Source: a virus. From it: 64,000 nt of DNA. Below the pieces are notes generated by a model that searched no databases, was not told the DNA's origin, and saw nothing but the letters and a program-made list of their open reading frames with translations. Each line of letters begins with the position of its first letter. Position 1 is the stretch's first letter. A program made the translations under genes and the position numbers. The stretch is from positions 13,088 to 77,087 of IMG/VR virus record IMGVR_UViG_3300017781_004450; one strand, written 5' to 3'. Positions 28,984 to 60,123 of the stretch are shown one piece after another.

Positions 28984-30045
28984 ATGACACAAAAAGTTTC
29001 TGAAGTAACAACAGTTCATCTGGAATTGACAGATAAATGCCAAGCACAATGTCCAATGTGTGCAAGGAATTTCCACGGAGGTCCTACCAGACCTTTCATT
29101 AAGAACGGAGATATGAGCATTGATGATTTTAAAAAATGGTTTCCTAAACCATTTCTAGCTCAGTTACAAAACTTTTATAGTTGCGGTAATTACGGTGATC
29201 CTGCGTTTGCAAAAGATTGCTTAGAAATTTATTCATATGTTAGAGAGTGTAATCCTACTACTAGATTAGCAATACACACAAATGGTGGTATGAGAAATCC
29301 TGAATGGTGGGCAAAGTTAGCAAAGGTTATAGGAACAGTTTCGAATAGTACAGTTGTATTTGCAATCGATGGATTCAAAGGCAAACATGAATTATATAGA
29401 CGTAACACAAATTTTGATAAAGTTATAGAAAATTTAAAAGCATATATAGATGCTGGCGGCGAAGCAAGGGTAGATAGTTTAGTGTTCAAGCACAATGAAG
29501 ATGAAGCAGAAGAACTAGAAAAGTTTTTGCTAGAGCTAGGAGTCAAAGAAGTTAACTTTGTAAGCACTACACGTTTTTATGAGATGGAAAAATTTAAAGT
29601 TGTTAATAACAATCTAGAAACAGAATATTTTTTAGAGCCTGCAACAAGACAAAGATTTGCTAAACAGCCAAATGCAAAATTAATTGATTTGTTAGATACA
29701 AGTTATCTAAATCATGTTATGGAACAAGCAAAAATTAATCCTAAGTGTACTAGCGAAAAAGGTATATATGTTGATCCATACGGACACATAATGCCTTGCT
29801 GTTATATAGGTAGCGATTACTTAGAACAACCAATAGAAGAGATATTACCTATACACAAACTGCGTAATCAGAGTGTGCAAAATACAAAAGATATAATAAA
29901 CAATATAGGTTTAAACACTTGCCAGTCAGGCATATTAGACACAGATGGCATTTTATTCGGTGGAATTACTGACTACTGGGAAGGCAAAGACAAGTGCATG
30001 ACCTGTGTAAAGGCATGTTCAACTGCCATTGTGGAGCCTAAATGA
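28984..30045 (+). CDS. radical SAM enzyme with C-terminal SPASM/Twitch-like domain
   Basis: CQAQCPMC; C-terminal KC...G.IMPCC...CMTCVKAC; TAAATA box at 28970. Confidence 0.9.
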   Translation: MTQKVSEVTTVHLELTDKCQAQCPMCARNFHGGPTRPFIKNGDMSIDDFKKWFPKPFLAQLQNFYSCGNYGDPAFAKDCLEIYSYVRECNPTTRLAIHTNGGMRNPEWWAKLAKVIGTVSNSTVVFAIDGFKGKHELYRRNTNFDKVIENLKAYIDAGGEARVDSLVFKHNEDEAEELEKFLLELGVKEVNFVSTTRFYEMEKFKVVNNNLETEYFLEPATRQRFAKQPNAKLIDLLDTSYLNHVMEQAKINPKCTSEKGIYVDPYGHIMPCCYIGSDYLEQPIEEILPIHKLRNQSVQNTKDIINNIGLNTCQSGILDTDGILFGGITDYWEGKDKCMTCVKACSTAIVEPK

Positions 30046-31028
30046 ACGATTTTACTCTAATACCATTCCACAATATTGTTAAGTTTGGACAAACAACAAT
30101 GCTTCAACAGCCATTGTTTAACGTTAGTTGGATACTTGGTCGCTTCTGTAATTATAGTTGTAGTTACTGTTGGCCGTATGCAAACTCAAACGTTCCAGAC
30201 CATCAAGACTTTGAAGTATACACAAATGCAATTGATGAAATTAAACGCCAAGCAAGAGCAAATGGATTTACTGAATTTCATTTTAGTTTTAGTGGAGGTG
30301 AACCAACAGCATATAAAAAGTTTGGTGACCTTGTTGAATATTATGCTAATGACGATGAAGCAAAATATCAAAGCATACACCTTACAACTAATCTAAGCCC
30401 AGGTGAGAAATGGTGGGGAAGATTTATAGACAACACCAGCCACCTAACACGTCGTAGCATCACTGCAAGTTATCACGCAGAATTTGCAAACGAAAAAGAC
30501 TTTGGAGATAGATGCGTACAGCTCATAGAAGGAGGAGTATTTGTTACAATTAATCAAGTTATGGTTCCTGAACACTTTGAAGAATATTATGAACGTTGTA
30601 GTAGATTCGCAGACAAAGGAATTAACGTCACTCTTAAACCGCAGTCCGACCCTACCGCGTCTAGAATAGTTGACGGGTACACCGATCAGCAAATTGAACA
30701 ATTGCAAACAGGCTTTCCACAAAATTGGAAAGGTGAGCAAATCATGCAAATGTATTTAGAAGATGCTAAAGGAAACAATTATGGTTTGGATCAGGCAGAA
30801 AGAATGAATGCATTTAACTTCAATAAGTTTAAAGATTGGAATTGCAATGCAGGGTATCAAAGCTGCGTTATAAGAGGTGATGAAGTTAAGAGAGCATATA
30901 GTTGCAGCGATATCCCTTTAGGAACGCTACAGGGCGGTTTTACGCTGTTTAAGACGCCATCTAAATGCATTACTAGCTCTTGTGTAAGTAGTGCAGACAG
31001 CAAAATACCTAAATTTTTAAAAGTTTAA
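30042..31028 (+). CDS. radical SAM enzyme with C-terminal Twitch-like domain
   Basis: CNYSCSYC, SGGEP, WNCNAG...C...C. Confidence 0.9.
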   Translation: MNDFTLIPFHNIVKFGQTTMLQQPLFNVSWILGRFCNYSCSYCWPYANSNVPDHQDFEVYTNAIDEIKRQARANGFTEFHFSFSGGEPTAYKKFGDLVEYYANDDEAKYQSIHLTTNLSPGEKWWGRFIDNTSHLTRRSITASYHAEFANEKDFGDRCVQLIEGGVFVTINQVMVPEHFEEYYERCSRFADKGINVTLKPQSDPTASRIVDGYTDQQIEQLQTGFPQNWKGEQIMQMYLEDAKGNNYGLDQAERMNAFNFNKFKDWNCNAGYQSCVIRGDEVKRAYSCSDIPLGTLQGGFTLFKTPSKCITSSCVSSADSKIPKFLKV

Positions 31029-31872
31029 TTTTTTTGGTTTTGGATTTTTCAATTGGTAATGTAATTTTGTTTTCCCATTTACACAAACGACACTGCTCTT
31101 GAGGTTCTAATTGTGTTTTGATCCAAGTTTCAAACTCTTCAGGACTACACCCTAGATCTTGTTTTGCTATATCAGCAAACGGATCTTCTATTTGAAACTT
31201 TCTTGATAACTGAGGAAGTATTGCCTGTTGATGACAGCGATAAAATCTACCATCTACTAGATACATACATTGTATAGCAGGACACTTAGAATGCTGATCA
31301 TCTTTATCTCTAAGTTTATCCCAAGTTATTTTGTTACCTTTTTTAACTACAGCAGGGTTTTCGTAAAACTGCCATGCTTCTGTAATTTCACCTCTTTCAA
31401 TTCCGTCAACAACAAGTTTATAATGCCACTCACCATCTTCGTGTCTAGTATCTTTGAATCGCTCACAGGATACATCTGCCCACCTATTGTGTATCCACGA
31501 CATTACGGTGTCAAGGTCTTGTTGTGAATGTGCTGATATTTCTATTTTCCAATCACGGTCTATCCATTCAGGATACAGTTCATCAAATTTATCTAGGTCT
31601 CTCCCGTTGGTTACTACCCATTTTTTAGCATTAGGCCACATACTTTCTAAGTATGCCATCCAATCTCCTAGTGCAGGATTAGACGTAGGCTCACCACCTA
31701 TAATAAAAACTTCTTCAAAGTCGACTGTGTCTGGTAGAGCTTTTAATTTTTCTTTAGTTGTATCTGGCTTAAAATGGGTACCCCAATTTAAATGATTAAA
31801 CGTGCAACAGCTATCACACGCCAAAGTACAGGTGTGGGTTATATATACACTTAATTCAGGAAGGAGTAACAT
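31009..31872 (-). CDS. radical SAM enzyme
   Basis: CTLACDSC, GGEP, TNG, C-terminal C...C...FYRC...CRLC. Confidence 0.88.
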   Translation of the reverse strand: MLLLPELSVYITHTCTLACDSCCTFNHLNWGTHFKPDTTKEKLKALPDTVDFEEVFIIGGEPTSNPALGDWMAYLESMWPNAKKWVVTNGRDLDKFDELYPEWIDRDWKIEISAHSQQDLDTVMSWIHNRWADVSCERFKDTRHEDGEWHYKLVVDGIERGEITEAWQFYENPAVVKKGNKITWDKLRDKDDQHSKCPAIQCMYLVDGRFYRCHQQAILPQLSRKFQIEDPFADIAKQDLGCSPEEFETWIKTQLEPQEQCRLCKWENKITLPIEKSKTKKIKLLKI

Positions 31873-31899: not shown

Positions 31900-32505
31900 G
31901 TGAAAGTAGAACTTGAAGATATAAAATTTTGGATGGATGCAATTCGCAACAGCGAAGATCGCGACCGCACACTTGAAAGTTTTTGGGGAGGCCAATTAAA
32001 ATCTAAAGCGTGGTTGGTTGAAACACTGCAAAAACATCATCATGTTGGTAATGTTAGTTGTGTTATATTTGGCGGATGGAATGGCGTATTAGCAAATTTA
32101 TTGTTCAACAGCACAATAGGATTTAAACATATTACAAGTGTTGATATTGATCCTAAGTGTGCAGAAATAGCAAACACAATGAATAAGCGTTACGAGATGG
32201 AAGGAAAATTTACAGCAGTTACAGCAGATATGTGTGAGTATGAATATACTGATCAACCTTACATGGTCATTAACACAAGTTGCGAACACCTCACACAACA
32301 ACAGTACAACAAATGGGCAAAACGTGTACCAACAAGTACTGAAGTGATTTTACAATCTAATAATTATTTTGAACTAGAAGAACATGTAAACTGTTCTAAT
32401 AGTGTTAGCAGTTTTGAAAAAAAATCTAAATTAAAAACTATACTAGTTAAAGATGAATTAGAGTTACCTAAATATACACGTTATATGTTAATGGGAAGAT
32501 TTTAA
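31900..32505 (+). CDS. class I SAM-dependent methyltransferase-like protein
   Basis: VIFGGWNGVL, TSVDIDP, TADM, VINTSCEH. Confidence 0.75.
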   Translation: MKVELEDIKFWMDAIRNSEDRDRTLESFWGGQLKSKAWLVETLQKHHHVGNVSCVIFGGWNGVLANLLFNSTIGFKHITSVDIDPKCAEIANTMNKRYEMEGKFTAVTADMCEYEYTDQPYMVINTSCEHLTQQQYNKWAKRVPTSTEVILQSNNYFELEEHVNCSNSVSSFEKKSKLKTILVKDELELPKYTRYMLMGRF

Positions 32506-33887
32506 TGTCTGAATTAGACAAATATACAGACGCCATAGCCAAGGCCGCTGGCACAAAAACATTTTGTGTTTTACCATGGATACACTTTGCAACAAGACCT
32601 AACGGAGATATGAGATTATGTTGTTCGTCAAATGCTAGTGGTGCAGGTGGTGATCACGAAGTAGGTTTAGTTAAAATGAATCATGGCAAGCCTGCAAACT
32701 TTGGTCACGAAACTCCTATGGAAGCATGGAATAATGATTACATGAAAAATGTAAGAACCACAATGCTTGAAGGTAATATTCCTGCAAGTTGTAAAAAATG
32801 CTTTGAGGAAGAGAAGAAAGGAGTTGCAAGTAAACGTGTTTGGGAAAGTTATACTTGGATGGAAGATGGTGTTGATATACCTGAACTTGTAAGACAAACA
32901 AAAGAAGATGGCACAGTTCCTGAAAATTTAAAATATTTAGACTTACGTTTAGGACATACATGTAATATTAAATGCGTCATGTGTTCACCACACGATAGTA
33001 GCAAGTGGGTCGCTGACCATAAAAAATTAATTCCTGTATTAGAAGATCCTGAAGTTAAAAGGCAAATGCAATGGGATAGAAAAGAGTTCAATAACAAATG
33101 GCATGAAAAAGATACGTTTTGGGAAGAAATGAATGCACAGATTCCTAACTTAAAACAAGTATACTTTGCAGGCGGCGAGCCGTTAATGATTAGAGAACAC
33201 AAAAGATTTATTGAAGAAATTATCAGGCAAGGATATCAAGATAAAATACTGTTACGCTATAACAGTAACGGATTGCTAGTTGATGATGATTTGATTGAGC
33301 TTTGGTCAAAGTTTAAGAAAGTTAAATTTGCTGTAAGCATGGACGCTAGTCACGAACGTGACGAATACATACGTTTTCCTACAAACTTTGAAACTGTAGA
33401 AAAAACATTACACATGTTAGATAACACACCTGACAACATACAAACAAGTTTAGCAACAGCAATTCAAATATTCAACGTAAAACACTTACCAGACTTTATG
33501 AAATGGAAACTAGAAAGCGGCTTTAAAAAATTAAATGTTGGTGAAGTTCCAGGTGGAGTACAAATGGGCGGTGGGCTAGTTAACATGCACTTACTATACA
33601 TTCCAACATTTCTAAGTATACAAATTTTACCTAAAGAAGATAAAGAAGAAGTTAAAGAACGTTTTATGGACTTCAAAGATTGGCTATGGAAAAACTATAG
33701 ACAAGATGACGAATATTGGAAACATAATCCATATGGGTGGAAACGTTGGGAAGCAGTTCTTAATCATATGAATGCACAGGACAACAGTCACTTATTACCA
33801 GGCTTCAAGGAATACACAAATAAACTTGATGCTATACGAGGTTTAGAAGCAGCAAAGGTATTTCCAGAGTTAGCACATCTACTATGA
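32505..33887 (+). CDS. radical SAM enzyme with N-terminal SPASM/Twitch-like domain
   Basis: FCVLPW..RLCC..CKKC precedes CNIKCVMC; AGGEP. Confidence 0.9.
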   Translation: MSELDKYTDAIAKAAGTKTFCVLPWIHFATRPNGDMRLCCSSNASGAGGDHEVGLVKMNHGKPANFGHETPMEAWNNDYMKNVRTTMLEGNIPASCKKCFEEEKKGVASKRVWESYTWMEDGVDIPELVRQTKEDGTVPENLKYLDLRLGHTCNIKCVMCSPHDSSKWVADHKKLIPVLEDPEVKRQMQWDRKEFNNKWHEKDTFWEEMNAQIPNLKQVYFAGGEPLMIREHKRFIEEIIRQGYQDKILLRYNSNGLLVDDDLIELWSKFKKVKFAVSMDASHERDEYIRFPTNFETVEKTLHMLDNTPDNIQTSLATAIQIFNVKHLPDFMKWKLESGFKKLNVGEVPGGVQMGGGLVNMHLLYIPTFLSIQILPKEDKEEVKERFMDFKDWLWKNYRQDDEYWKHNPYGWKRWEAVLNHMNAQDNSHLLPGFKEYTNKLDAIRGLEAAKVFPELAHLL

Positions 33888-34888
33888 GAGAATTAATTAA
33901 AATTGCTACTACACAAGATCCTGAAACATTAGATATTAGGTTCTGGCCAACTGACATTTGTAACTTCTCTTGCGAATACTGTTTTCCAGGTAGTGTTACT
34001 AACAGACTTCGCTATCCTAAAAATATAGATACAGTAATAAAAAACTTTAGAGCATTATTTGATTATTATACATTAGCACATAATAAAACACATTTTAAGA
34101 TTAACGTTGTAGGTGGAGGCGAGCCTACATTATGGCCTCACTTTGCAAAGTTTTGTAAAGAAATAAAAGAAAATCATAGTGTTCATATACAATGTACCAC
34201 TAACGGAAGTAGAACTGTAAGATGGTTTGAAAAAAATACACAAGATGTAGATGAGTTTGTTTTAAGTTGCCATCAAAAAGATGTAGACATTGATAACTTT
34301 ATTGCAGTTGCTGATCATCTCTTTGGAAGAGGAACAGATGTAACCGCACTTATGTTAATGGATGCAACAGCGTGGGATAGATGTATCGAACTAATTGAGA
34401 AAATGAAAACCAGTAAGCAACGCTGGATTATACAAGCAAAAGAAGTAGTAGATGCTCCCGGCTACGATATAGGTAGTTACAATGATGAACAAATGAAATA
34501 CTTGCAGCAGCCAATAAAACGTGCTCCAGATTCGGATTGGATTATATCTAACCTACATAGATTTAGAATACATGAAAGTATAGCAATATATGATAACGAT
34601 GCTATAGTACCTGCAACACCAAACAAATATATTATGGAACAGGCAAACTATTTTAAAGGCTGGAAATGCAACGTTGCTATAGAAAATTTAGTTATTACAC
34701 ATGACGGTAGAGTTACAGGTAGTTGTCAAGAACAAGTATTTGCTGATGCAAATATTAGTATGTTTGCAGAGGATTTTATTTTAAGATTTAATAAAGCACA
34801 AATGGATTTAAAAACTATTATTTGTCCAAGGACTAGTTGTAGTTGTCAACCTGACACACACATTACGAAATGGAAAGTTCCTTTGTAA
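33884..34888 (+). CDS. radical SAM enzyme with C-terminal Twitch-like domain
   Basis: CNFSCEYC, GGGEP, TNG, WKC...SC...ICPRTSCSC. Confidence 0.9.
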   Translation: MRELIKIATTQDPETLDIRFWPTDICNFSCEYCFPGSVTNRLRYPKNIDTVIKNFRALFDYYTLAHNKTHFKINVVGGGEPTLWPHFAKFCKEIKENHSVHIQCTTNGSRTVRWFEKNTQDVDEFVLSCHQKDVDIDNFIAVADHLFGRGTDVTALMLMDATAWDRCIELIEKMKTSKQRWIIQAKEVVDAPGYDIGSYNDEQMKYLQQPIKRAPDSDWIISNLHRFRIHESIAIYDNDAIVPATPNKYIMEQANYFKGWKCNVAIENLVITHDGRVTGSCQEQVFADANISMFAEDFILRFNKAQMDLKTIICPRTSCSCQPDTHITKWKVPL

Positions 34889-35774
34889 GAGGGATGTCAG
34901 CGGCACAAGTACACCACTTACGAGTACAAGTTATCCAATCTTCCGGTTGTTCAAAACTACCGTCATAAATGTTACCTATACTTCCGCCAACTCTACAAGT
35001 AGCACGGTGAACTTCACCGTCCCAATTAATCATTAGGCTTTCTATACCTGCACTACACTTCCAACCTTCAAATTGATTTAGATGTTTTTTAATAACATCG
35101 TTGGCATGCATTTCTTCTTTATCGTCAATAATAACATTAGGCTTTGCTGTTGATGTTTGATTAAGTATCCATTCTAAATCTTTACCTTCATATTTTAAAT
35201 CATCAAACACATCATGGTCACCTTCTGTCCATCGTATTCGTCTTACAACATAAGGAATGCTGTGTCCGTCAAACATTGTAGCACATTCTTTTACTCTATC
35301 CATAAGTTTATGATGTGCCATTAAGTTGACTTGAAATGGCTTTTTTGTATATGCACCTTCATTTATCTGAGAAAACATTAATACAGTTTCTGCACATCTT
35401 CTCCAATGTTCATCGTCTTCTACATGCAAACTAAACACAATATGATTTACATTAAGATCACTGTAGTACTGTGCTGTCCGTGTGCCGTTAGTAGTTACAT
35501 TGATCCAATCAACACGCTGACTTGCATGATCAACAAGTTCCGTAAACTTTGGGTGTACGCAAGGTTCACCGCCTGTAAAACTTACACGCATTGATTTATC
35601 AATTTCAGATAGTGCATCAACTGCATCTAACAATACTTTAATATTTGTATGTGGGCTGGTGTTATCGTGTATTTCTGTTGGGCAGTAACTACAATCAAAG
35701 TTACAACGTTTGCCAAGGTTCCACTCAACATGAACACTATCTTGATGCGGCCATTTGCTTATTACTTTATGCAT
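34863..35774 (-). CDS. radical SAM enzyme with C-terminal Twitch-like domain
   Basis: CNFDCSYC, TGGEP, TTNG, WKCSAG...TC...CTRKWCTC. Confidence 0.9.
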   Translation of the reverse strand: MHKVISKWPHQDSVHVEWNLGKRCNFDCSYCPTEIHDNTSPHTNIKVLLDAVDALSEIDKSMRVSFTGGEPCVHPKFTELVDHASQRVDWINVTTNGTRTAQYYSDLNVNHIVFSLHVEDDEHWRRCAETVLMFSQINEGAYTKKPFQVNLMAHHKLMDRVKECATMFDGHSIPYVVRRIRWTEGDHDVFDDLKYEGKDLEWILNQTSTAKPNVIIDDKEEMHANDVIKKHLNQFEGWKCSAGIESLMINWDGEVHRATCRVGGSIGNIYDGSFEQPEDWITCTRKWCTCAADIPLTKELSIS

Positions 35775-38553: not shown

Positions 38554-38558
38554 AACGA

Positions 38559-38602: not shown

Positions 38603-38607
38603 TGCAT

Positions 38608-52437: not shown

Positions 52438-52442
52438 GTAGT

Positions 52443-53297: not shown

Positions 53298-54213
53298 GAA
53301 ACATTTGCCTTTTGGAAATGCATTTGCTATAGCAGATCCGCTGGTTACCACGTTCTTGTCTAATCTTAACATTGACGTTACTAAAGTTACACAAGACCAA
53401 GATGTACTGAAAAAGTTTTTAGACAGATATATTGAGTGGATATCAGAAACAAAAAATAATAATGTTACAGGTTTAGAAAAATATCCATATGCTTGTTTTG
53501 CAAATGGTACGACAGAAGCATTTGAAAAGTTTTATGCAAAACATCATAAACGTAGATTTAGATTTTACAAAGGAGAATATGTATATCATAGACTAAATTG
53601 TAGGAACAACGGATATGATTGGGAGTGGTTGGATGATGCTCCTCTTGCTGGAAATGACGTTGTTATGATAAGTCTACCTTTTAGCGATACTGGCAACACA
53701 CCTAAGGATTTAGATTTGCTACTTGATCAGTGTGACAAACTTAAAATACCTGTGTTACTTGATTGTGCTTACCTCGGTGTGTGCAGCGGCATAGACTTTA
53801 ATCTTGATAGAGAATGTATTACTGACGTAACATTTAGTCTATCTAAAACACTATACTGCGCTCATGCTAGAATAGGAATGAGATTAACTAAAGAAGATGA
53901 TGACGATCCGTTGTTTGTTACAAACAAAGCAGGATATATCAATAGGGTATCAGCATATATAGGACTACAATTACTCAACAGTTTTTCGCCTGACTACATA
54001 TATGATAATTATAGAGCAAAGCAAGAACGCTGTTGTGAAATACTAGATGTAGAACCTAGCGATTGTATTCTTTTTGGCATAGGGGACAGCCGATGGAATG
54101 AGTACAATAGAGATAGAGAAACAAATAGACTAAGTCTACACAAGTACTTGTCTAATAATAACCTTGAAGATGAAATAAAAGCAATAGCAGATGAAAAAAG
54201 GCAAAATACTTAA
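53278..54213 (+). CDS. PLP-dependent fold-type I enzyme (aminotransferase/decarboxylase-like)
   Basis: NGTTEAF, PFSDTG, LLDCAY, FSLSKT...RIG. Confidence 0.75.
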   Translation: MKNKYDKKHLPFGNAFAIADPLVTTFLSNLNIDVTKVTQDQDVLKKFLDRYIEWISETKNNNVTGLEKYPYACFANGTTEAFEKFYAKHHKRRFRFYKGEYVYHRLNCRNNGYDWEWLDDAPLAGNDVVMISLPFSDTGNTPKDLDLLLDQCDKLKIPVLLDCAYLGVCSGIDFNLDRECITDVTFSLSKTLYCAHARIGMRLTKEDDDDPLFVTNKAGYINRVSAYIGLQLLNSFSPDYIYDNYRAKQERCCEILDVEPSDCILFGIGDSRWNEYNRDRETNRLSLHKYLSNNNLEDEIKAIADEKRQNT

Positions 54214-55330
54214 TTTCGAAATCCTGTGGGATACTGACGAAGGACTAGTGTCCTTGGCGGAGAAGTATATTCCTATGGATATACAAAAGGCCGCAGATGA
54301 AGGTTGTACCCACGTTGTAGGAATAGTTCTAAACGAAGGAATACTACCATTTGATGACAGCAACTTACAGCAATTTTTTAATAACTTACAAAAACAAACA
54401 ACTGAACTTGGCATTCAATTAGTAATACTATCTTCACTAGGAGAACAATTTAAAAATATTACTGTTCCGTTTGAGATACACTATTTTCCTTACCATGCAA
54501 GATTTGTTTACAACTGCTACAAAAAGTCACAACTTCCGTTGTATGATAATAAGGACAAGTTTTTGTTTCTTGGTGGTGCAGCAACTAGGTCAAACAGAAT
54601 AGGACTGCTTAGTAAGTTTTATGACGCAGGAATGTTAGATAAAGCAGAATGGAGTTTCTTTAAACCAACATATGCTGAAGATGTCAAATGGTGTAGAAAT
54701 CATTTAAAAAGATATAGCGACAAAGAATACAGCAAGTTTATTGATACCGTTGAAAGAAGCATAGACGATAGATACGATGAAGTTAAATTGTTAATTAAAG
54801 ATGCTCAAGAAACTTATGGAGATTGGCACGATATTGTAAACACAAAGTTTTACAAAAGACCTGGATATTTAACACCTAAGGTATTTGAAGATACACACTT
54901 CAGTATACTATCAGAAGGCCCTAACTTTTGGTCAGACGACTATGACTTTGTTACAGAAAAAACATGGCGTACAATTATAAACAGGCATCCTTTTATATTT
55001 GCTGGTCCCACAGAACAGTTTAAATATATAAAGTCCTTAGGCTTTAAAACATTTGAAGACTATCTTCCAATTAAAGATTATGCTTATATTCAAGATGAAG
55101 ATAAAAGGCTAGATGCTATTGTAGAAAATACAAAGTATCTACTAGACAGCCATAATAAAAATATTGCTGCTGATGTTGAATACAATTATAAGCAGTACAT
55201 GAACATAATAGAAACACAAGATAGACTGTTTGATAATTTAGAAAATATTATGGCAGTCCCGAGAAGTGAAATAAATTACTACTTGGACAACGAAGGATTA
55301 GATCATCTCATAAGGGAAAAGAATGAATAA
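54191..55330 (+). CDS. hypothetical, glycosyltransferase-like; tandem paralog of the next gene
   Basis: FLFLGG..R.NR, FSILSE, VTEKTWRTI..HPFI..G....IKSLGFKTF. Confidence 0.55.
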   Translation: MKKGKILNFEILWDTDEGLVSLAEKYIPMDIQKAADEGCTHVVGIVLNEGILPFDDSNLQQFFNNLQKQTTELGIQLVILSSLGEQFKNITVPFEIHYFPYHARFVYNCYKKSQLPLYDNKDKFLFLGGAATRSNRIGLLSKFYDAGMLDKAEWSFFKPTYAEDVKWCRNHLKRYSDKEYSKFIDTVERSIDDRYDEVKLLIKDAQETYGDWHDIVNTKFYKRPGYLTPKVFEDTHFSILSEGPNFWSDDYDFVTEKTWRTIINRHPFIFAGPTEQFKYIKSLGFKTFEDYLPIKDYAYIQDEDKRLDAIVENTKYLLDSHNKNIAADVEYNYKQYMNIIETQDRLFDNLENIMAVPRSEINYYLDNEGLDHLIREKNE

Positions 55331-56492
55331 GGGTAGAGTAATTAACTTTGAATGGATGCGTGATTATAATCATTGGTCAGCAGAAGATTTCAATGTACTT
55401 AGAACAAAGTTAATTAATAAAGAAATTGATCAAGCAGCAGCAGACGGCTGTAATATAATAGTGGGCATATACCTACTTGATGGATTCTTACACCCTAAGG
55501 CTGGACTTACAGATTTCCTTCAACATATATCTGATATCAAAGATCATGCAACAAGCAAAGGTATAGAGCAGATGTATATTGTAAGTGGGCAAGGAGAAAC
55601 TATAGAAGGATTGCCAGTTCCATTTTTCTTTTTTGATTATAATGTAAGAATGATATACAATAGTTACAAAAATACACAGCACCCTTACTATAATCCAAAC
55701 AACAATAAGTTTTTATTTTTAACAGGAATGCCTAATAGAGAAAATAGAATAGGACTTATGAGCAAGTTTTATGATGCAGGTATGTTGAATAAAGCAGAGT
55801 GGACATTCTTTCCTCCTTGGACTGAACTAGATAAAGAATGGTGTAGAAACTGTTTATCTCATTACACAGACAAACAATATAATAAATTTTTAATAGACTG
55901 CAAACGTTCTTTTGATGGAAGGTTTGAAACAGCCAAGGACTTCTATGGTTCTTATAATCAAGACACTGATATAGTTTGGCACGATGTTATTGATACTGAT
56001 TGGGTCAAAGCACCTGCACACATTGATACTAGTGTGTTTACCAATACACTGTTTAGTATAGTAAGTGAAGGTCCAAACTATTGGGACGATGACAATGCAT
56101 TTGCAACAGAAAAGTCTTGGCGTTGCTTTTACCTTAGACATCCATTTATATTTGCAGGACATCCTGATCAGTTCCAATACTTAAAAGACTTAGGCTACAG
56201 AACGTTTGAAGAATACTTGCCTATACCAGACTATTATAAACTACCGAATGAAAACGATAGAAACAATGCAATTGTAGAAAATGCAAAGTATCTATTAGAG
56301 CATAGAGAACATGACGATGACATACGTTTAGACACTGAAGAAAATTACTTGCAGTTTCTTAAGCATGTTATAACGCAGGATAACTTACTTGCCAAGTTTA
56401 AAGACGAGTTTAATATTCCTAAAGAAGAATTAGATTACTACTTCGAAGGCTTAGGATACACACAACTTATTAGGAGATTACCTAATGACTAA
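55323..56492 (+). CDS. hypothetical, glycosyltransferase-like; tandem paralog of the previous gene
   Basis: FLFLTG..R.NRIGLMSKFYDAGML, FSIVSEGPN, ATEKSWR...HPFIFAG. Confidence 0.55.
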   Translation: MNKGRVINFEWMRDYNHWSAEDFNVLRTKLINKEIDQAAADGCNIIVGIYLLDGFLHPKAGLTDFLQHISDIKDHATSKGIEQMYIVSGQGETIEGLPVPFFFFDYNVRMIYNSYKNTQHPYYNPNNNKFLFLTGMPNRENRIGLMSKFYDAGMLNKAEWTFFPPWTELDKEWCRNCLSHYTDKQYNKFLIDCKRSFDGRFETAKDFYGSYNQDTDIVWHDVIDTDWVKAPAHIDTSVFTNTLFSIVSEGPNYWDDDNAFATEKSWRCFYLRHPFIFAGHPDQFQYLKDLGYRTFEEYLPIPDYYKLPNENDRNNAIVENAKYLLEHREHDDDIRLDTEENYLQFLKHVITQDNLLAKFKDEFNIPKEELDYYFEGLGYTQLIRRLPND

Positions 56493-57402
56493 GTGTGCAG
56501 CATTTTGGAAACATACTAATATACGTGGTGATAACAGAGTATTTCCGTGTTGTAGATACAAAGCACCTGTAACAACATTTAAAGGTAGCCTTGAAGATGT
56601 ACTACAATCAGAAGAGTATGTAAAGTTAAGGAACACTGATGTGTCAACTTTATGGGAATGTTCGAAGTGTATGTATGAAGAAAAGAACGGCAAAGAAAGT
56701 TTACGCCAACGCATGAACAAAGAATATGATACTGATACTGTTGGCTTAGAATACTTAGAGATAGGCTTTGATAATATATGTAATCTAACATGTGATGGCT
56801 GTTGGAGCGAGTTTAGTTCAGCATGGGCTAAGAAAGAAACAGGAGTTGCAAAGTATACAAGTGTTGATGAAATAGAAACAGTTCCGGACACTGTAAAGAA
56901 AGTATTGTTTCTTGGTGGTGAACCTTTAATGACAAAAAGGCATCAACAGTTCCTTGAAAAGATTAATAATCCTAAACAAGTTGAAGTAATATATAACACT
57001 AACGGAACTTTCCTTTTAAAAGACGATGTTATAGAACTGTTAGAAAAATTTAAAAAGGTACACTTTATATTAAGTATTGATGCTGTCGGACCATTAAATG
57101 AAATAGTTCGTAGTGGAAGTAAATGGCCTGACATACTAAAATTTATAGAACAAATTAAAAAGTTAGGATATGGACTTGAAGTTAACAGTGTATTACACTT
57201 GAACAATTGGCATGGTATTGCTGATTTAGAAAAGTTTGTTAACAGCATTACTCCCATATGGACAGTTAATGTTTTAACATATCCAAAGCGTCTTAACATT
57301 ACTAACTATACAAACAAGCAAGAAATAATAGACTTAGTCAAGCAAACAGAGATACCAAACAAGGAATATGTTGTTAACCATTTATCGCAATCAAATGTAT
57401 AA
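56485..57402 (+). CDS. radical SAM enzyme with N-terminal SPASM/Twitch-like domain
   Basis: KCAAFW..FPCC..CSKC precedes CNLTCDGC; LGGEP. Confidence 0.9.
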   Translation: MTKCAAFWKHTNIRGDNRVFPCCRYKAPVTTFKGSLEDVLQSEEYVKLRNTDVSTLWECSKCMYEEKNGKESLRQRMNKEYDTDTVGLEYLEIGFDNICNLTCDGCWSEFSSAWAKKETGVAKYTSVDEIETVPDTVKKVLFLGGEPLMTKRHQQFLEKINNPKQVEVIYNTNGTFLLKDDVIELLEKFKKVHFILSIDAVGPLNEIVRSGSKWPDILKFIEQIKKLGYGLEVNSVLHLNNWHGIADLEKFVNSITPIWTVNVLTYPKRLNITNYTNKQEIIDLVKQTEIPNKEYVVNHLSQSNV

Positions 57403-57443: not shown

Positions 57444-58496
57444 ATGAAAGTATCGACACATAATCACTGGGATCCCTTAGAAGAAATAGTAGTTGGAATC
57501 GCTGACCATGCAAGAGTTCCTACTGTAGATCGTAGCACAATGAGCATGAGCTACACTAATCACCCAATGGATTTAATTAAGCCTTTAGAAGGTGAGTACC
57601 CAGAATGGCTTATTGATGAAGCCAACGAAGATTTACAAGGGTTAAGTGATGTACTAACCAAAGCAGGTGTAAAAGTACATAGACCTATTCCAATTGATCA
57701 TAGCGTAGAGTTCAGTACACCTGAATGGAAAACAACAGGTTGGTACACATGGTGCCCGAGAGACTTATTGCTACCTATGGACAACTTAGTTATTGAGACT
57801 CCAAGTGCATGTCGTGCAAGGCAGTATGAAACTAGAGCATATAGAAATGTGATGTTTGAAGCAATTGAAGATGGTGTTGAATGGATTTCTGCTCCTAAGC
57901 CTATACTACCAGATGAAGGTTATCAGTTTGAAGATATAGATGGTAAGCCTAGTTTACTAAACTTAGAACCGATCTTCGATGCACCTAACTGTGTGCGTTT
58001 AGGTAAAGACATATTATTCCAAATTAGTAACACAGGTAACCACTGGGGATTAAAATGGCTACAAAATGTATTAGAGCATAGAGGTTATCGTATACACCCT
58101 GCAGAACATATTTACAGTTACGGTCACTTCGACAGTACAATAGTACCTTTACGTCCTGGATTAGTATTACTAAACAGTTCAAGAGTAACCGCAGAAAACT
58201 GTCCTAGAGTATTTGAGAAGTGGGATAAAATTTGGTTTGATGATTGTATTGCACAAGGAAGTAAAATACCTGGAGGTGTTGCTCCTTGTAGCCCGTACAT
58301 AGGAATGAATATTTTAAGTGTTGATCACAATACTGTATGTGTAGATGACACACAAGAACCTTTGATGAGAGAATTAGACAAGCACGGTATTACAAGTGTA
58401 CCTATACGCTTTAGACATGCTATGACACTTAGTGGAGGATTGCACTGCGCTACACTAGACTTGCGTAGAAAAGGGGAGTTAGAAGATTATACATGA
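57444..58496 (+). CDS. amidinotransferase (glycine / inosamine-phosphate amidinotransferase, StrB1-like)
   Basis: HNHWDPLEEIVVG, CPRD, FDAPN, HFDST, GGLHCATLD (Asp-His-Cys triad). Confidence 0.9.
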   Translation: MKVSTHNHWDPLEEIVVGIADHARVPTVDRSTMSMSYTNHPMDLIKPLEGEYPEWLIDEANEDLQGLSDVLTKAGVKVHRPIPIDHSVEFSTPEWKTTGWYTWCPRDLLLPMDNLVIETPSACRARQYETRAYRNVMFEAIEDGVEWISAPKPILPDEGYQFEDIDGKPSLLNLEPIFDAPNCVRLGKDILFQISNTGNHWGLKWLQNVLEHRGYRIHPAEHIYSYGHFDSTIVPLRPGLVLLNSSRVTAENCPRVFEKWDKIWFDDCIAQGSKIPGGVAPCSPYIGMNILSVDHNTVCVDDTQEPLMRELDKHGITSVPIRFRHAMTLSGGLHCATLDLRRKGELEDYT

Positions 58497-58993
58497 TCAA
58501 GTTCGAGAAGAACATATCGGATTTCTGGTCCCAAGATCTTAAAGATTTTAAGTTTGCTGTTCTATCACCATTAACACAAGCTCAACGAGATCATTGGTCT
58601 CACCCTAATTACATCAATGAGCTAAACTCGTTAGAACAAGCATTTGACAATGACCTCCCAGAGTATTGGCCAAGGTTTATGGAAGAGTTGAATATTACCA
58701 ACGGAACAGTTTCGTGGACAAATATTGCTCCAGGTAATGTTGTTCCTGTACACACTGATAAATTTTATAAGTTAAGAAAAAAGTACGGTGTTGAAAGAGA
58801 CGAATGCATTCGTTACCTAATGTTCTTGCAAGATTGGGAAATGGGCCAAATGGTAGAGTTTGAAGAAAAAATTCTTACTAGATGGAAAAAGGGAGATGTA
58901 TGGAGTTTTGGGATTGATGATTCACATTGTGCCGCAAATGCTACACAAGATAATTTTATAACTTGCCAAATTAACACATTCGAAAGGAAGTAA
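58493..58993 (+). CDS. 2OG-Fe(II)/cupin oxygenase
   Basis: PGNVVPVHTD...SHCAANA. Confidence 0.72.
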   Translation: MIKFEKNISDFWSQDLKDFKFAVLSPLTQAQRDHWSHPNYINELNSLEQAFDNDLPEYWPRFMEELNITNGTVSWTNIAPGNVVPVHTDKFYKLRKKYGVERDECIRYLMFLQDWEMGQMVEFEEKILTRWKKGDVWSFGIDDSHCAANATQDNFITCQINTFERK

Positions 58994-58995
58994 CT

Positions 58996-60123
58996 ATGGA
59001 ACTAACTTCATTGCAGAAGGAATGGAATAATTGTACACTAGAATACGATCTAGAAAAATTCAACTGGCCTGCATGGGCGTTAGGTGTTGTACAAGAAGTA
59101 ACACCACAAGTTACTAAACTAGAAACATTACACGAAGTACTATCTCCTAAAGAAATTGTAACTGTTAGTAGGCATGTACAAAATGCATGTAGTCGTAAAG
59201 ACTTTATGGAACGCTTTGATGCTTTTGTTGCTGAATATATTCCGCAGCGTATCGACAATAAAAGATATATGATTCAGCGTCAAGGAACTTTACGTGTGGT
59301 TATTCCTAATCAAGCAAGTGTAGGACGAAGACTTGCTTTCCATCAAGGTATCTTTGTAGGTAATGGCAGAGGGTGTAGAACTATATGGACACCGTTTACA
59401 GAAGCACGTGGTACTAACACTATGTGGATGGTAGATGTAGAAAACAGTAGAAGAATTACAAAACAAATTATGGCTGAAAAATGGAGTTTGGAACAGATAG
59501 AAGATGAATGTTTAAAACATGCGTTTCCTATTACACTAAAGCCAGGACAAAGCCATTTGTTCTTTCAAGAGATGTTACATGGTAACGTAAACAACGAAGA
59601 AGGGTATACACGGGTAAGCATGGACATGCGTATCCTTATTGAAGGTGAAGAATACGGTAGAAGACATCCAGGTGGATTTATGCGTTTGCCAGGCGATCAC
59701 GAAGTTGCTGGGGAAGCAGACTATACAGGAAAGAGTGCTATAACATATGCAGGCTGGAATAGTAAGTTTTCAAATCAAATTCCGTTACCTATGCAAAGAG
59801 CAATCATTGAGCCATACTGCGTTAAAAACAAGATTGAATATACAAGTTACGAATTTGAAAACGAACACCTAGACTGGATGCCTGGTTTAGAGTTTTATAT
59901 TAATGAACAACCAGATGTTATTGTGCTATGCAGTATCTATTCGATGACAGATGATGTTGAAAGACGCAAAGAGCTTTTTAATCTAGCATTAGAGAAAGGT
60001 GTTGAACTACACTTTGCAAATGAACTGTGTTCTATAAAAACAGTTAATGACCTTGACAAAATTGAAACTTATCTCAACTTTGCTGTTGCTAAAAAAGATC
60101 CTTATGTTTGGGAATTAGTGTAA
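58996..60123 (+). CDS. StrG/PhyH-like oxygenase fused to an LIC12192-like ('sporadic carbohydrate cluster') domain
   Basis: TLRVVIP..AFHQG..TIWTP..LHGNVNN...RVSMDMR; C-terminus IPLPMQRAIIEPYC...IVLCSIYSM...LHFANE. Confidence 0.6.
   Translation: MELTSLQKEWNNCTLEYDLEKFNWPAWALGVVQEVTPQVTKLETLHEVLSPKEIVTVSRHVQNACSRKDFMERFDAFVAEYIPQRIDNKRYMIQRQGTLRVVIPNQASVGRRLAFHQGIFVGNGRGCRTIWTPFTEARGTNTMWMVDVENSRRITKQIMAEKWSLEQIEDECLKHAFPITLKPGQSHLFFQEMLHGNVNNEEGYTRVSMDMRILIEGEEYGRRHPGGFMRLPGDHEVAGEADYTGKSAITYAGWNSKFSNQIPLPMQRAIIEPYCVKNKIEYTSYEFENEHLDWMPGLEFYINEQPDVIVLCSIYSMTDDVERRKELFNLALEKGVELHFANELCSIKTVNDLDKIETYLNFAVAKKDPYVWELV

Follow-up and report, generated by a model that had tools for sequence, protein, structure and literature searches.

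A 31 kb island of radical SAM enzymes and iron oxygenases beside a probable tail-fibre gene in an uncultured marine giant phage

Gene content of the island

IMGVR_UViG_3300017781_004450 belongs to an uncultured marine giant phage, a jumbo phage with PA5oct and Atu_ph07 among its kin, and the contig is a fragment with a completeness of ~21%. In the window (the whole stretch of 64,000 nucleotides that was analysed), a 31 kb island flanks a probable tail-fibre gene and contains 38 genes (g01-g38, Table 1), nearly all of which code for soluble enzymes, including 11 radical SAM proteins and ~10 iron oxygenases. Such an enzyme island had been described in an earlier note made from the letters of the DNA, and this observation was confirmed by Pfam, NCBIfam, motif and PDB/fold comparison.

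Table 1. Features of the island and its surroundings (positions in the window)
Feature	Position	Strand	Assignment	Evidence
IscU, IscS, Fe/Mn superoxide dismutase	17321..19739		Outside island, 10 kb upstream	PF01592 E 2e-38; PF00266 E 3.3e-86; PF02777 E 2.6e-24
g01	28984..30045	+	Radical SAM, 353 aa	PF04055 45.5 bits; CX3CX2C at residue 19; TAAATA box at -14
g02	30042..31028	+	Radical SAM, 328 aa	PF04055 48.6 bits
g03	31009..31872	-	Radical SAM, 287 aa	PF04055 30.1 bits, barely above cut-off 29.5; box at -11
g04	31900..32505	+	Putative SAM methyltransferase, 201 aa	PF13649 22.6 bits, below cut-off 27
g05	32505..33887	+	N-terminal-twitch radical SAM, 460 aa	NF033640 394.3 bits, cut-off 170
g06	33884..34888	+	Radical SAM, 334 aa	PF04055 45.3 bits
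g07	34863..35774	-	Radical SAM, 303 aa	PF04055 54.1 bits
g08	35762..36571	-	MUG113/T5orf172-like, probably mobile endonuclease insert	PF13455 20.9 bits, below cut-off
g09	36564..37832	-	N-terminal-twitch radical SAM, 422 aa	NF033640 327.4 bits
g10	37816..38568	-	PP-loop ATPase, QueC-like, Cys4 site	phrog_1550 E 3.7e-7; Pfam QueC only E 0.024
g11	38602..39264	+	Cupin Fe(II)/2OG oxygenase-like	Invariant H82xD84...H126; PF05118 E 0.14 only
g12	39250..39648	-	Function unassigned, hydrophobic N-terminus	Maximum hydropathy 1.91 at residue 2
g13	39618..40535	+	Extended SDR, NDP-sugar type	PF16363 E 2.7e-41; PF01370 E 8.8e-39
g14	40517..41215	+	Protein-kinase-fold-like	Paralog of g22; weak kinase matches of profile A11
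g15	41208..41780	+	Small cupin oxygenase-like	Invariant HxD...H
g16	41777..42352	+	Alternative oxidase/PTOX-like di-iron oxidase	PF01786 E 1.5e-67; one hydrophobic segment
g17	42336..42875	+	Small cupin oxygenase-like	Same family as g15
g18	42860..43906	+	Cold-shock domain + 2OG-Fe(II) oxygenase fusion	PF00313 34.4 bits, PF13640 45.1 bits, both above cut-offs
g19, g20	43903..44947	+	Short Rossmann-like paralogs	26% mutual identity; adh_short E 0.0048, g20 only
g21	44921..45538	-	Function unassigned	Conserved in 6 loci
g22	45474..46166	-	Protein-kinase-fold-like	Paralog of g14; box at -11
g23	46193..47008	+	Asp/Asn-hydroxylase-like cupin	Invariant H178xD180...H237
g24	46986..47513	+	Small cupin oxygenase-like	Aligned with g15/g17/g37 family
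g25	47504..48136	+	Function unassigned	Counterpart only in locus L084
g26	48111..49205	-	GT-A glycosyltransferase fold + class I methyltransferase fold fusion	AF2 model, pLDDT 88.5
g27	49234..49881 (start read at 49234)	+	Asp/Asn-hydroxylase-family cupin	PF05118 25.9 bits, cut-off 22.6
g28	49876..50880	-	Radical SAM	PF04055 39.1 bits
g29	50870..51535	-	Asp/Asn-hydroxylase-family cupin	PF05118 35.3 bits, above cut-off
g30	51519..52403	-	Radical SAM	PF04055 38.3 bits
g31	52416..53297	+	Radical SAM	PF04055 42.8 bits
g32	53278..54213	+	Fold-type-I PLP enzyme-like, putative aminotransferase	PF00155 27.3 bits, cut-off 19.7, residues 89-206 only
g33, g34	54191..56492	+	GT-B-fold glycosyltransferase-like paralogs	44% mutual identity
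g35	56485..57402	+	N-terminal-twitch radical SAM, 305 aa	NF033640 186.7 bits, cut-off 170
g36	57444..58496	+	L-arginine:amine amidinotransferase, StrB1/AGAT family	GGLHC, H228, D230 invariant
g37	58493..58993	+	Small cupin oxygenase-like	Aligned with g15/g17/g24 family
g38	58996..60123	+	2OG oxygenase + LIC12192-like domain fusion	TIGR04324 77.8 bits (cut-off 150), TIGR04323 46 bits (cut-off 55)
g39	60115..61629	-	Probable tail fibre or receptor-binding protein, right island border	PF18454 Mtd_N 31.1 bits

All 11 radical SAM genes scored above the PF04055 cut-off, a six-frame search again returned 11 of 11, and exactly one CX3CX2C motif was present in each protein. Their starts agreed with those read previously (the higher coordinate for minus-strand genes), that of g31 being 52416 or 52443. 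A comparison of the twitch-family N-terminal domain with solved chains matched only the BtrN twitch domain (E 1.2e-3), and we know of no member of this family with a known reaction. g05 has 292 IMG/VR relatives and g09 has 2801 homologs at E<=1e-5. No named close relative was found for g01 or the non-twitch families g02/g06/g07 and g03/g28/g30/g31, for which all NCBIfam scores were far below cut-offs; the paralogs of g03 are g30 and g31.

The 10 oxygenase-like sites were all supported, with unequal strength, as Pfam cut-offs were exceeded only by g18, g27 and g29. g15, g17, g24 and g37 form one family, in which HxD...H is invariant across 22 sequences, and hhalign linked it to the g11 family (89% probability). 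PF05118 was carried by 11 of the 30 Atlas clusters nearest to g23, and PDB and hhalign searches with this protein gave no support. Both g38 matches to 'sporadic carbohydrate cluster' families (TIGR04324, TIGR04323) were below cut-offs.

The amidinotransferase, SDR and PP-loop assignments were also borne out. The g36 profile (A9) matched PDB 1bwd over its full length (E 4.5e-79); all PDB matches of g13 (48/48) were nucleotide-sugar SDRs, and it has the motifs STMEVYG and YxxxK; in g10, SGGADS and C203...C231xxC234xxC237 were invariant in 12 sequences. The glycosyltransferase-like genes g26, g33 and g34 could be upheld at the level of fold only. In the AF2 model of g26, residues 1-220 resembled PBCV-1 A64R (Z 10.3), with the LH3 glycosyltransferase domain also aligning, and residues 214-364 resembled EgtD and NodS (Z ~9). 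Glycosyltransferases made up 44 of the 50 matches listed for the g34 model (pLDDT 70.9; best Z 9.4). Other previously proposed functions fared less well. The PF00155 score of g32 and its invariant S187xxK190 argue weakly to moderately for a PLP enzyme, and a PDB search gave no match; the putative methyltransferase g04 likewise had no PDB match, in addition to its low Pfam score; and the kinase-like assignment of g14 and g22 is weak, with 17 of 20 PDB matches (E 1e-3 to 0.4) having the protein-kinase fold.

Profile searches gave no family match for g12, g21 or g25. Hydropathy analysis of the island proteins located hydrophobic stretches in g16 and the g12 N-terminus only, and Pfam and NCBIfam profiles of flippase, polymerase and Und-P transferase families matched none of the island genes.

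Borders, promoters and relatives

The g39 product has a Gly/Thr/Ala/Asn-rich repeat sequence and a dN/dS of 0.53. The proposal that the island ends at a tail-fibre gene was supported in that this protein is fibre-like (Mtd_N, repeats), but its identity as a fibre falls short of proof. Of the 39 genes, 10 have a TAA[AG]TA box that starts at -15 to -9, as do 9 of 15 operon heads; at random positions the mean was 0.26, and the highest count in 2000 trials was 3. The box also occurs at -38 of a gp10-like baseplate gene, and the island might be expressed late by analogy with T4. RNA-library contigs were also seen; DNA carry-over is possible in these, and they are no indicator of timing. The claim that the island lacks sigma70 promoters does not hold strictly: a site with 12/12 consensus positions lies at 35820-35792, before g07, and there are two 11/12 sites. 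Total numbers of sigma70-like sites did not exceed those in shuffles (65 vs 85 +/- 10; 63 vs 62 +/- 9). The upstream sugar-supply genes (PMM, KdsA-like and GT8-like) have sigma70-like promoters, and they were absent from the flanks of 80/80 relatives.

At least 80 IMG/VR loci carry the island core (80-93% identity), where its genes are shuffled and accompanied by additional paralogs. The core genes co-occur across many relatives. Each of g02, g04, g05, g07, g09 and g10 was present in 41-80 of 80 loci (g02 in 63 and g07 in 62), and g04 accompanied g05 in 79. By comparison, orthologs of g13 were found in only 7/80 loci, g08 in only 4/80, and the right half (g31-g38) in only 3 related loci. Values of dN/dS were 0.03-0.35 in 24 island genes (0.04-0.13 for g02, 0.05-0.09 for g05), and the island genes are under purifying selection. 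UDP-glucose/GDP-mannose dehydrogenase was present in 3 of the 7 relatives' islands scanned, which further held an SDR, a PfkB fragment and a mannose-6-P-isomerase-type cupin. In one locus (L073), a gene for a gp9/10-like protein is located immediately 5' of the island.

A g29-like gene adjoined a g26-like gene at 13/27 phage and 2/2 bacterial places, and in locus L100 the two were fused in one 808-aa frame. This fusion and adjacency suggest that the hydroxylase and the glycosyltransferase may be functionally coupled. Homologous clusters also occur on Bdellovibrionota chromosomes, and at 5/7 bacterial places a g32-like gene lies within 1.5 kb of a g36-like gene, beside twitch radical SAMs.

A possible tailoring pathway and its alternatives

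The g13 SDR, three glycosyltransferase folds, StrB1-type g36, the g38 families, and the UDP-glucose dehydrogenase and SDRs of relatives all point to sugar or aminocyclitol chemistry. We consider the chances about even that the island is a mosaic, cytoplasmic pathway for sugar/aminocyclitol-type tailoring and glycosyl transfer. In such a pathway, sugar carbons would first be oxidised or rearranged by the SDR and by radical SAM enzymes that work as BtrN-like alcohol dehydrogenases, epimerases or C-methylases, after which g32 might convert a keto group to an amine and g36 the amine to a guanidine, with arginine as donor. Amide or amidine formation by g10, methylation by g04 and the g26 C-terminal domain, hydroxylation by cupins and possibly phosphorylation by g14 and g22 could follow, and the product would be attached by g26, g33 and g34. 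Shuffling of cassettes among relatives may generate diversity of decoration.

Several observations count against this pathway. No named close relative anchors g01 or the non-twitch radical SAM families, and the glycosyltransferase assignments are at fold level with middling Z values (9-10), the confidence of the g34 model being only moderate. g13 and g31-g38 have a narrow distribution, a perfect sigma70-like site lies within the island, and the sugar-supply genes combine sigma70-like promoters with absence from relatives' flanks.

The acceptor is probably the phage's own virion, i.e. tail fibre or baseplate proteins. This target is favoured by indirect facts: the solubility of the enzymes, the lack of export genes and the position of the island within the tail module. 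The gp9/10-like neighbour in L073, the fibre-like right border and the box shared with the gp10-like gene also place the island on the virion side. The earlier interpretation, which had ranged from virion decoration to a small molecule and hypermodified DNA, is partly supported: the chemistry could be narrowed, and virion decoration is only indirectly favoured. Remodelling of the host envelope is one rival. A second rival is an aminoglycoside-like small molecule: Bdellovibrionota clusters L090 and L086, which have the radical SAM, PLP and amidinotransferase set and no recognisable glycosyltransferase, fit a small molecule and a glycan equally. PF05118 also includes protein and lipid A hydroxylases, and the cupins are therefore no pointer to sugars; direct protein modification is a third rival and DNA modification a fourth.

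With regard to known systems, the statement that such a cluster has no known product agrees with the literature searched. Clusters of this kind have already been noticed in print, in papers that give counts for radical-SAM-rich phage modules but no function (Timms 2010, Nishimura 2017, Zaragoza-Solas 2020). As in Nishimura 2017, the phage IscU, IscS and superoxide dismutase would probably supply and protect the Fe-S clusters of the island, and together with the alternative oxidase they might sustain its Fe-S enzymes in an oxic host.

Enzymes encoded in the island

The island (genes g01-g38) and the fibre-like gene on its right border (g39) are 39 genes densely packed on both strands. Neighboring island genes overlap or are separated by gaps of about 12-42 nt, the exception being one 364-nt gap at the left border. 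An earlier note had described this stretch as an island of tailoring enzymes, and our analysis confirmed the observation: 11 radical SAM proteins, an SDR, an amidinotransferase, glycosyltransferase (GT) folds and cupins were found. Family searches assigned no function to g12, g21 and g25.

All 11 radical SAM proteins scored above the PF04055 gathering cut-off (30.1-54.1 bits against 29.5), and each has exactly one CX3CX2C motif, which occurs in none of the remaining 28 proteins. A six-frame search of the whole contig returned the same 11 matches over the cut-off and none further, so the number given in the earlier note was borne out. Three of these proteins (g05, g09 and g35, with 394.3, 327.4 and 186.7 bits) are members of the NCBIfam family NF033640 (N_Twi_rSAM), whose curated cut-off is 170 bits; this family thus covers 3 of the 11. 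The other eight are non-members (23.9-42.7 bits or unlisted) and fall into the paralog groups g02/g06/g07 and g03/g28/g30/g31, plus g01, and their best named NCBIfam matches are far under every curated cut-off. The NF033640 members keep N-terminal C...CC...CxxC cysteines in addition to CX3CX2C; their twitch auxiliary-cluster domain is N-terminal. Pfam SPASM matches were located at residues 21-99, 9-69 and 4-62 of the three proteins, and C9, C27, C28, C66 and C69, preceding C125/C129/C132, were invariant in an alignment of the family. When a profile of this domain was compared with solved chains, BtrN was the sole match (E 1.2e-3). As BtrN is an aminocyclitol dehydrogenase, this suggests alcohol oxidation as a possible role of the N-terminal-twitch family, on which our literature searches found no study. 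A radical SAM protein with an N-terminal HMPTM-type zinc ribbon (PF23545), a type absent from the window, was observed in two loci of relatives (L035 and L069).

Ten genes encode HxD...H cupin-oxygenase-like proteins. The earlier note had counted about ten, and all ten found support. Three of them (g18, g27 and g29) exceeded Pfam cut-offs (PF05118/PF13640). The other seven (g11, g15, g17, g23, g24, g37 and g38) were under these cut-offs and were assigned by motifs, one profile-profile link in hhalign, Atlas or sub-threshold TIGR04324. The HxD/E...H triad is invariant in the g15/g17/g24/g37 family (22 sequences), in g11 and in g23, and is also present in g27; hhalign gave a probability of 0.5% when the g23 and g11 families were compared.

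The product of g16 is an alternative oxidase (AOX)/PTOX-like protein (PF01786, E 1.5e-67), which in this non-cyanophage lies among genes for oxygen-sensitive radical SAM enzymes; its orthologs were seen in 2 of the 80 phage loci listed. Membrane-like segments were found only in g16 and at the N-terminus of g12. Genes for IscU, IscS (NifS-type cysteine desulfurase) and an Fe/Mn superoxide dismutase are clustered 10 kb upstream of the island. These genes and the island AOX would be in keeping with a requirement for assembly and protection of numerous Fe-S enzymes. The same Fe-S supply role was proposed for marine T4-like genomes (Nishimura 2017, PMC5332604).

Several other genes are related to sugar metabolism. 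g13 is an extended nucleotide-sugar SDR (PF16363, E 2.7e-41) with STMEVYG and YxxxK motifs, and its PDB matches at E<1e-10 were NDP-sugar epimerases, dehydratases, reductases or decarboxylases in 48 of 48 cases. A profile of six g36 homologs matched the amidinotransferase StrB1 (PDB 1bwd) with E 4.5e-79 over positions 3-353 of 355, and SxtG, HsvA and AGAT made up its six remaining PDB matches, whereas the single g36 sequence was under the Pfam cut-off (PF02274, 12.8 bits vs 22.8). C335 (in GGLHC), H228 and D230 of g36 are invariant in 6 sequences and are candidates for the catalytic Cys-His-Asp triad of amidinotransferases. In g10, the SGGADS PP-loop is invariant and cysteines are arranged as C...CxxCxxC in the manner of QueC, and no TIGR QueC match (i.e., no QueC equivalog) was obtained with it. 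g32 is PLP-enzyme-like, g04 is a putative methyltransferase under the Pfam cut-off, and g14 and g22 show weak likeness to the protein-kinase fold.

Three genes (g26, g33 and g34) are GT-like at the fold level. In the model of g26 (pLDDT 88.5), residues 1-220 adopt a GT-A fold and residues 214-364 a class I methyltransferase fold. The top match of the GT-A part was the glycosyltransferase domain of PBCV-1 A64R (PDB 2p72; Z 10.3, rmsd 3.5 over 159 residues, 9% identity), and the GT domains of LH3, COLGALT1 and Mimivirus R699 aligned with Z 9-10. Many GT-A and nucleotidyltransferase entries were among the fold matches; sugar nucleotidyltransferases have the same fold. D99 and H151-D152, candidates for a DxD-type metal and nucleotide site, are invariant in g26. 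g33 and g34 are 44% identical and gave no matches to Pfam GT families. In a comparison of the g34 model (pLDDT 70.9) with 48,161 chains, made without Foldseek, 44 of the 50 matches listed were GT-B glycosyltransferases (best Z 9.4, a middling value, with 269 residues aligned), in agreement with an Atlas lead to GT10. For g26, g23, g10, g32 and g04, nothing usable came out of profile searches of the PDB.

Coordinates of features in the window and, where a locus is named, in loci of relatives
Feature	Positions	Strand	Remark
157-aa frame	3224-3697	-	Matches DNA polymerase III alpha NTPase domain at positions 19-95 only
2217-aa protein and adjoining 748-aa protein	10121-16774	-	T4 gp9/10 N-terminal domain (2217 aa); Gly/Thr/Ala-rich (748 aa)
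IscU, IscS and superoxide dismutase genes	17321-19739
Sigma70 sites, at least 11/12	19062-27926		Directly before IscS, UvdE, 274-aa gene, PTPS and 429-aa gene
PTPS/QueD-like gene	24572-25021
Hairpin	28646-28669		10-bp, GC-rich, with T run; after the 65-aa gene
86-aa frame	28676-28936	+	Rejected as precursor
65-aa gene	28681-28878	-	Lys/Ala-rich; between ThyX and island (left-border gap)
Island and g39	28984-61629	both	39 genes
Divergent junction	31873-31899		Back-to-back TAA[AG]TA
g08	35762-36571		MUG113/T5orf172-like
TTGACA-17-TATAAT	35792-35820		Perfect; in g08 3' end, ahead of g07
Divergent junction, g10/g11	38569-38601		No TAA[AG]TA at -9 to -15
g16	41777-42352		Alternative oxidase/PTOX-like
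Divergent junction	46167-46192		Back-to-back TAA[AG]TA
Divergent junction	49206-49233		Back-to-back TAA[AG]TA
Divergent junction	52404-52415		Back-to-back TAA[AG]TA
Radical SAM with zinc ribbon	L035:494-1636
Radical SAM with zinc ribbon	L069:19964-21016
Array of twitch radical SAMs	L132:7992-17273		Bacterial locus
SDR, twitch radical SAM and methyltransferase genes	L162:7420-17560		Cultured Ralstonia phage RsoM2USA

Promoter-like boxes and relatives of the island

The hexamer TAA[AG]TA was found 9-15 nt ahead of the start codon in 10 of the 39 genes and at 9 of the 15 operon heads, against a mean of 0.26 for random positions; in the window the box has the form nWTAARTAy. Divergent operon heads are about 12-34 nt apart, with one box per side at 11-14 nt from each start codon, except at the g10/g11 junction, which has no box at -9 to -15. 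Boxes this close to the starts in such narrow junctions would imply mRNAs that are leaderless, or have very short leaders, and carry no Shine-Dalgarno site. The same hexamer precedes the gp10-like gene at -38 and, as TAAATA, IscU at -12. Among orthologs, the presence of a box tracks operon-head position and not gene identity (g04, 2 of 44 and g23, 8 of 12 distinct upstream sequences).

T4-type late promoters have the consensus TATAAATA and are read by a gp55-type sigma factor. The full 8-mer is rare in the 64 kb window, occurring once on the plus and twice on the minus strand. The earlier note had reported late-type boxes at almost every operon head and had seen no sigma70 promoter inside the island. 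The boxes stood at the heads just counted, but with sigma70-like sites inside the island and the full TATAAATA rare, "late" timing is a reasonable analogy to T4, not a result. Inside the island, g07 is preceded by a perfect sigma70-like site, and two further sites match at 11/12 positions, so the second claim does not hold literally, although these sites are not in excess over shuffled sequences. Six near-consensus sigma70 sites are present in the flank at 17-29 kb, five of them ahead of same-strand genes. This flank, with PMM, GT8-like, KdsA-like, PTPS and ThyX genes, looks from these sites like a block of its own, transcribed by the host polymerase. In four RNA-labelled runs (three studies), contigs covered 29, 23, 17 and 23 of the 30 bins of 28900-48800. 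These contigs are of low depth, may stem from DNA carry-over, give no readable strand, start or timing, and are no proof of transcription.

The source record is linear, 77,087 bases long (the window being bases 13088-77087), and 21% complete as estimated by CheckV; in agreement with this estimate, near-identical g09 proteins were found on contigs of up to 313 and 356 kb. The nearest cultured relative of the clamp loader is PA5oct (55%), followed by Atu_ph07, Phosso and RsoM2USA, all jumbo phages. It follows that the phage belongs to neither the pelagimyophages nor the cyanomyophages, and a pelagimyophage identity, which we had considered, was dropped. No tRNA was detected in the window by ARAGORN. 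The window has gp9/gp10-like baseplate genes, one of which encodes the 2217-aa protein; this giant baseplate or fibre protein and the adjoining 748-aa one are candidate acceptors of decoration. The 157-aa polymerase-like frame may belong to a polymerase gene that is split or interrupted. g08 splits the g09-g07 pair, is present in 4 of the 80 relatives listed and looks like a mobile endonuclease insert.

We detected 292 relatives of g05 in IMG/VR; the 80 listed are 80-93% identical. Conservation of the neighborhood, a check proposed in the earlier note, was evident in these 80 loci: within 10 kb of g05, g04 was present in 79, g02 in 63, g07 in 62, g09 in 50 and g10 in 41, forming a recurrent core, and g11 in 28. 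Gene order and strand vary, and extra radical SAM paralogs come and go. The right half of the island (g20-g38) was found in 3 loci only, two of which have no g25, g27, g30, g33 and g38. In five related records (16-44% complete), radical SAM matches numbered 6-15 per record. The flanks of the 80 loci contained none of the 13 genes, from ThyX to IscU, that precede the island in the window. dN/dS against orthologs was 0.03-0.35 in 24 island genes and 0.53 in the fibre-like g39; thus, the island enzymes are kept by selection while the composition is fluid. A g29-like gene is adjacent to a g26-like gene at 13 of 27 phage places, and relatives' islands contain UDP-glucose dehydrogenase (3 of 7 loci scanned) as well as an SDR, a PfkB fragment and a mannose-6-P-isomerase-type cupin. 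For g09, 2801 homologs were obtained at E<=1e-5, the best 120 all at least 79% identical. No matches were obtained when 21 kb of the island were searched against the phage collection with Megablast, and only 4 cultured or single-cell records (24-25% identity) came up in a tblastn search with g05. The cultured Ralstonia phage RsoM2USA (344 kb jumbo) has, within 10 kb, three genes with hypothetical annotations that encode a twitch radical SAM, an SDR like g13 and a methyltransferase like g04.

When one genome per prokaryote species was scanned, 77 loci were obtained, 59 of them with Bdellovibrionota-type names. Twitch radical SAMs of bacteria form tandem arrays on the chromosome, with rpoD, nuo genes and mfd as neighbors. 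One locus (L132) has up to seven matches in 17 kb, and four to seven N-terminal-twitch paralogs lie amid housekeeping genes (nuo, mfd) in this locus, L110 and L116. In six loci (L086, L087, L090, L091, L100 and L127), twitch and g01/g02-like radical SAMs occur together with g32-like and g36-like genes, and all of these except L127 also have a g29-like hydroxylase. In L100, a single 808-aa frame combines a g29-like hydroxylase (39% identity) with a g26-like GT-A domain (27%), a fusion which argues that hydroxylation and glycosyl transfer may share one substrate. Island genes were also seen on 2.6-33 kb contigs of a Crocinitomicaceae MAG (L085, L096 and L101) and a Thermoplasmata MAG (L128). Those on L085, L096 and L128 (2.6-5 kb) are about 54-75% identical to the phage's, in phage order in L085 and L128, and the four contigs are probably phage DNA misbinned into cellular MAGs.

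Proposed sugar-type tailoring and its alternatives

We rate the chances as about even that the island encodes a pathway of sugar-type tailoring and glycosyl transfer. The named chemistry points to sugars because of the NDP-sugar SDR, the three GT folds (one fused to a methyltransferase), the carbohydrate-cluster families of g38, UDP-glucose dehydrogenase and the like in relatives, and g32 and g36, which might act as an amine-to-guanidine pair. Since every enzyme is soluble and the island yielded no genes for export, a polymerase or a lipid carrier, the acceptor should be cytoplasmic. This, together with the position of the island in the tail module, makes virion proteins our first choice. The earlier note had proposed decoration of virion proteins or a virion glycan, synthesis of a small molecule, or DNA hypermodification; its interpretation finds partial support and is narrowed to sugar-type tailoring, with the virion as a candidate target.

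A more speculative proposal, which we regard as possible though on balance doubtful, is that the N-terminal-twitch family and two companion radical SAM families form a new sugar/cyclitol-editing toolbox. With the StrB1-type amidinotransferase, it would supply both giant marine phages and predatory Bdellovibrionota with a heavily tailored glycan, or an aminoglycoside-like glycoside, that bears guanidino groups and a positive charge; the phage would carry it on its fibres or release it. In this scheme, the radical SAM enzymes would carry out oxidation, epimerisation and C-methylation at unactivated carbons, and cassette shuffling would generate hypervariable decoration, a viral counterpart of O-antigen diversity made by radical chemistry in the oxic ocean. 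Because the lineage is abundant, as judged by g09 homologs, any new chemistry of this kind, whether of a glycan or of a metabolite, would be common in sea water. If true, this would be the first function for NF033640, a family common to phages and Bdellovibrionota, and would explain the IscS/IscU-type Fe-S assembly genes in marine phages. If the target is the virion, it would bear on giant-phage host range, adsorption, and immune or defence evasion.

We consider it unlikely that the enzymes instead remodel the host envelope, altering the LPS/capsule sugars or lipid A of the infected cell, e.g., against superinfection. PF05118, which presumably includes the lipid A hydroxylase LpxO, matched three island genes; Kdo-hydroxylase-like and sulfatase/EptA-type genes occur in Bdellovibrionota clusters, and the homologous bacterial clusters are chromosomal. 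Upstream of the island, the window contains genes of KdsA-like, PMM, GT8-like and cytidylyltransferase type; however, these LPS-type genes belong to the sigma70-like block that is missing from the flanks of the 80 relatives listed, and the island has no membrane-bound enzyme, flippase, polymerase, ligase or Und-P transferase. The GT-rich host recognition cluster (HRC) of pelagimyophages is read in this way, with mention of radical SAM cassettes (Zaragoza-Solas 2020, PMC7029224), but our phage is not a pelagimyophage.

Equally improbable in our view is a free small molecule resembling aminoglycosides, namely a guanidinylated glycoside of aminocyclitol or aminosugar type, with the host, competitors or rival phages as its targets. 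Aminoglycoside biosynthesis uses PLP, kinase, methyltransferase and GT enzymes, and the PLP, kinase-like, methyltransferase and GT genes of the island agree with this logic. The best solved match of g36 is a streptomycin enzyme, SxtG was matched too, and the twitch domain matches BtrN of butirosin biosynthesis. In addition, the bacterial clusters hold radical SAM, PLP, amidinotransferase and hydroxylase genes without an obvious GT. On the other hand, the island is embedded in the tail module, has no exporter, resistance or regulatory gene, and no inositol/cyclitol synthase was seen; its content varies between close relatives (L082 is one of the loci without g25, g27, g30, g33 and g38), which is unusual for a fixed metabolite. 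A similar trio (aminotransferase, radical SAM and amidinotransferase) in a cyanophage is named "antibiotic synthesis genes" in a 2025 paper (PMC12801897).

It is less likely still that cupins and SPASM/twitch radical SAMs directly modify residues of a virion protein or ribosomal peptide, with GTs glycosylating hydroxylated residues in the style of collagen hydroxylysine. The Asp/Asn beta-hydroxylase family, the prolyl-hydroxylase-type domain of g18, the alignment of g26 with the collagen-type GTs LH3, COLGALT1 and Mimivirus R699, the hydroxylase-GT fusion, and many weak NCBIfam matches of the radical SAMs to peptide maturases would be consistent with this. However, (GXY)6 collagen-like runs numbered zero in the window and 84 phage loci, and collagen-like acceptors were dropped. 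No RRE or leader-peptidase family matches were obtained, and the NDP-sugar enzymes and the amidinotransferase are left unexplained. There also seems to be no room for separate precursor genes: the island genes abut or overlap, no free small frame was found between them, and the 364-nt gap is taken by the 65-aa gene, although overlapping or distant precursors may exist. The 86-aa plus-strand frame opposite this gene was rejected as a precursor, being hydrophobic and spurious.

Finally, hypermodification of phage DNA or RNA by part of the island, to evade host defences, is the least probable reading: although g10 is QueC-like, a PTPS/QueD-like gene lies upstream, g18 carries a cold-shock nucleic-acid-binding domain, the fold matches of g34 include both the alpha- and the beta-glucosyltransferase of T4 (Z 7.4-7.8) and Campylobacter phage CP220 is described with 11 radical SAMs (PMC2853527) and fully ADG-modified DNA (bioRxiv 10.1101/2023.04.13.536721), searches for QueE and QueC equivalogs were negative (best 36 bits vs a cut-off of 260), FolE was absent from the window scans, and the deazaguanine pathway would account for at most one of the 11 radical SAMs. 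PF00303/PF01702 were found in 0 of the five related records, but with records only 16-44% complete and models that divergent DpdA3-type enzymes may escape, this result carries too little weight to speak against DNA modification.

Comparison with known systems

Sugar-type tailoring beside tail genes is a known kind of phage island, and radical-SAM-rich modules are in print as gene counts. The version run by 11 oxygen-sensitive radical SAMs and about ten oxygen-requiring oxygenases has no characterised product, as the earlier note had supposed. CP220 and CPt10 encode 11 and 12 radical SAM proteins, with a swappable five-gene module and a putative glycine amidinotransferase (Timms 2010, PMC2853527), and the marine EVG TARA_ERS488813_N000010, a 183-kb T4-like genome, has 12 radical SAM genes beside Fe-S assembly genes (Nishimura 2017). 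As far as the available portions of these papers go, the numbers per phage and, in marine genomes, the Fe-S assembly genes are alike, but the counts come without a pathway, our phage is PA5oct/Atu_ph07-like, and the likeness is one of description only. In the portions at hand, these two accounts, the pelagimyophage study (Zaragoza-Solas 2020) and the cyanophage paper (PMC12801897) assign no product.

The HRC is described as a large hypervariable island of the structural module by tail fibres, whose GTs, LPS-type sugar genes and radical SAM cassettes vary among close relatives (Zaragoza-Solas 2020, PMC7029224). By definition, it is flanked by VrlC and gp14 in T4-like phages of SAR11 and cyanobacteria, whereas the island studied here, in a window where VrlC and gp14 were not identified, belongs to a jumbo phage of another group and, unlike the HRC as so described, has more radical SAMs and cupins than glycosyltransferases. 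The island would work like the HRC and is not a member of it.

With regard to chemistry, the island resembles the streptidine and butirosin pathways in the match of g36 to StrB1, the match of the twitch domain to BtrN (4m7s) and the PLP gene nearby. The StsC/StrB1 and BtrN steps follow the logic alcohol to ketone to amine to guanidine. The differences are that no cyclitol synthase was found and that the twitch domain is N-terminal here and C-terminal in BtrN. With regard to the acceptor, the top fold match of the g26 GT-A domain is the A64R domain "involved in the glycosylation of the major capsid" (2p72). At 9% identity, this likeness is at the fold level only. A methyltransferase domain is presumably part of A064R as well. 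Virus-encoded glycosylation of capsid and tail occurs in mycobacteriophages, and the island is like such virion glycosylation systems in that soluble enzymes are encoded beside structural genes.
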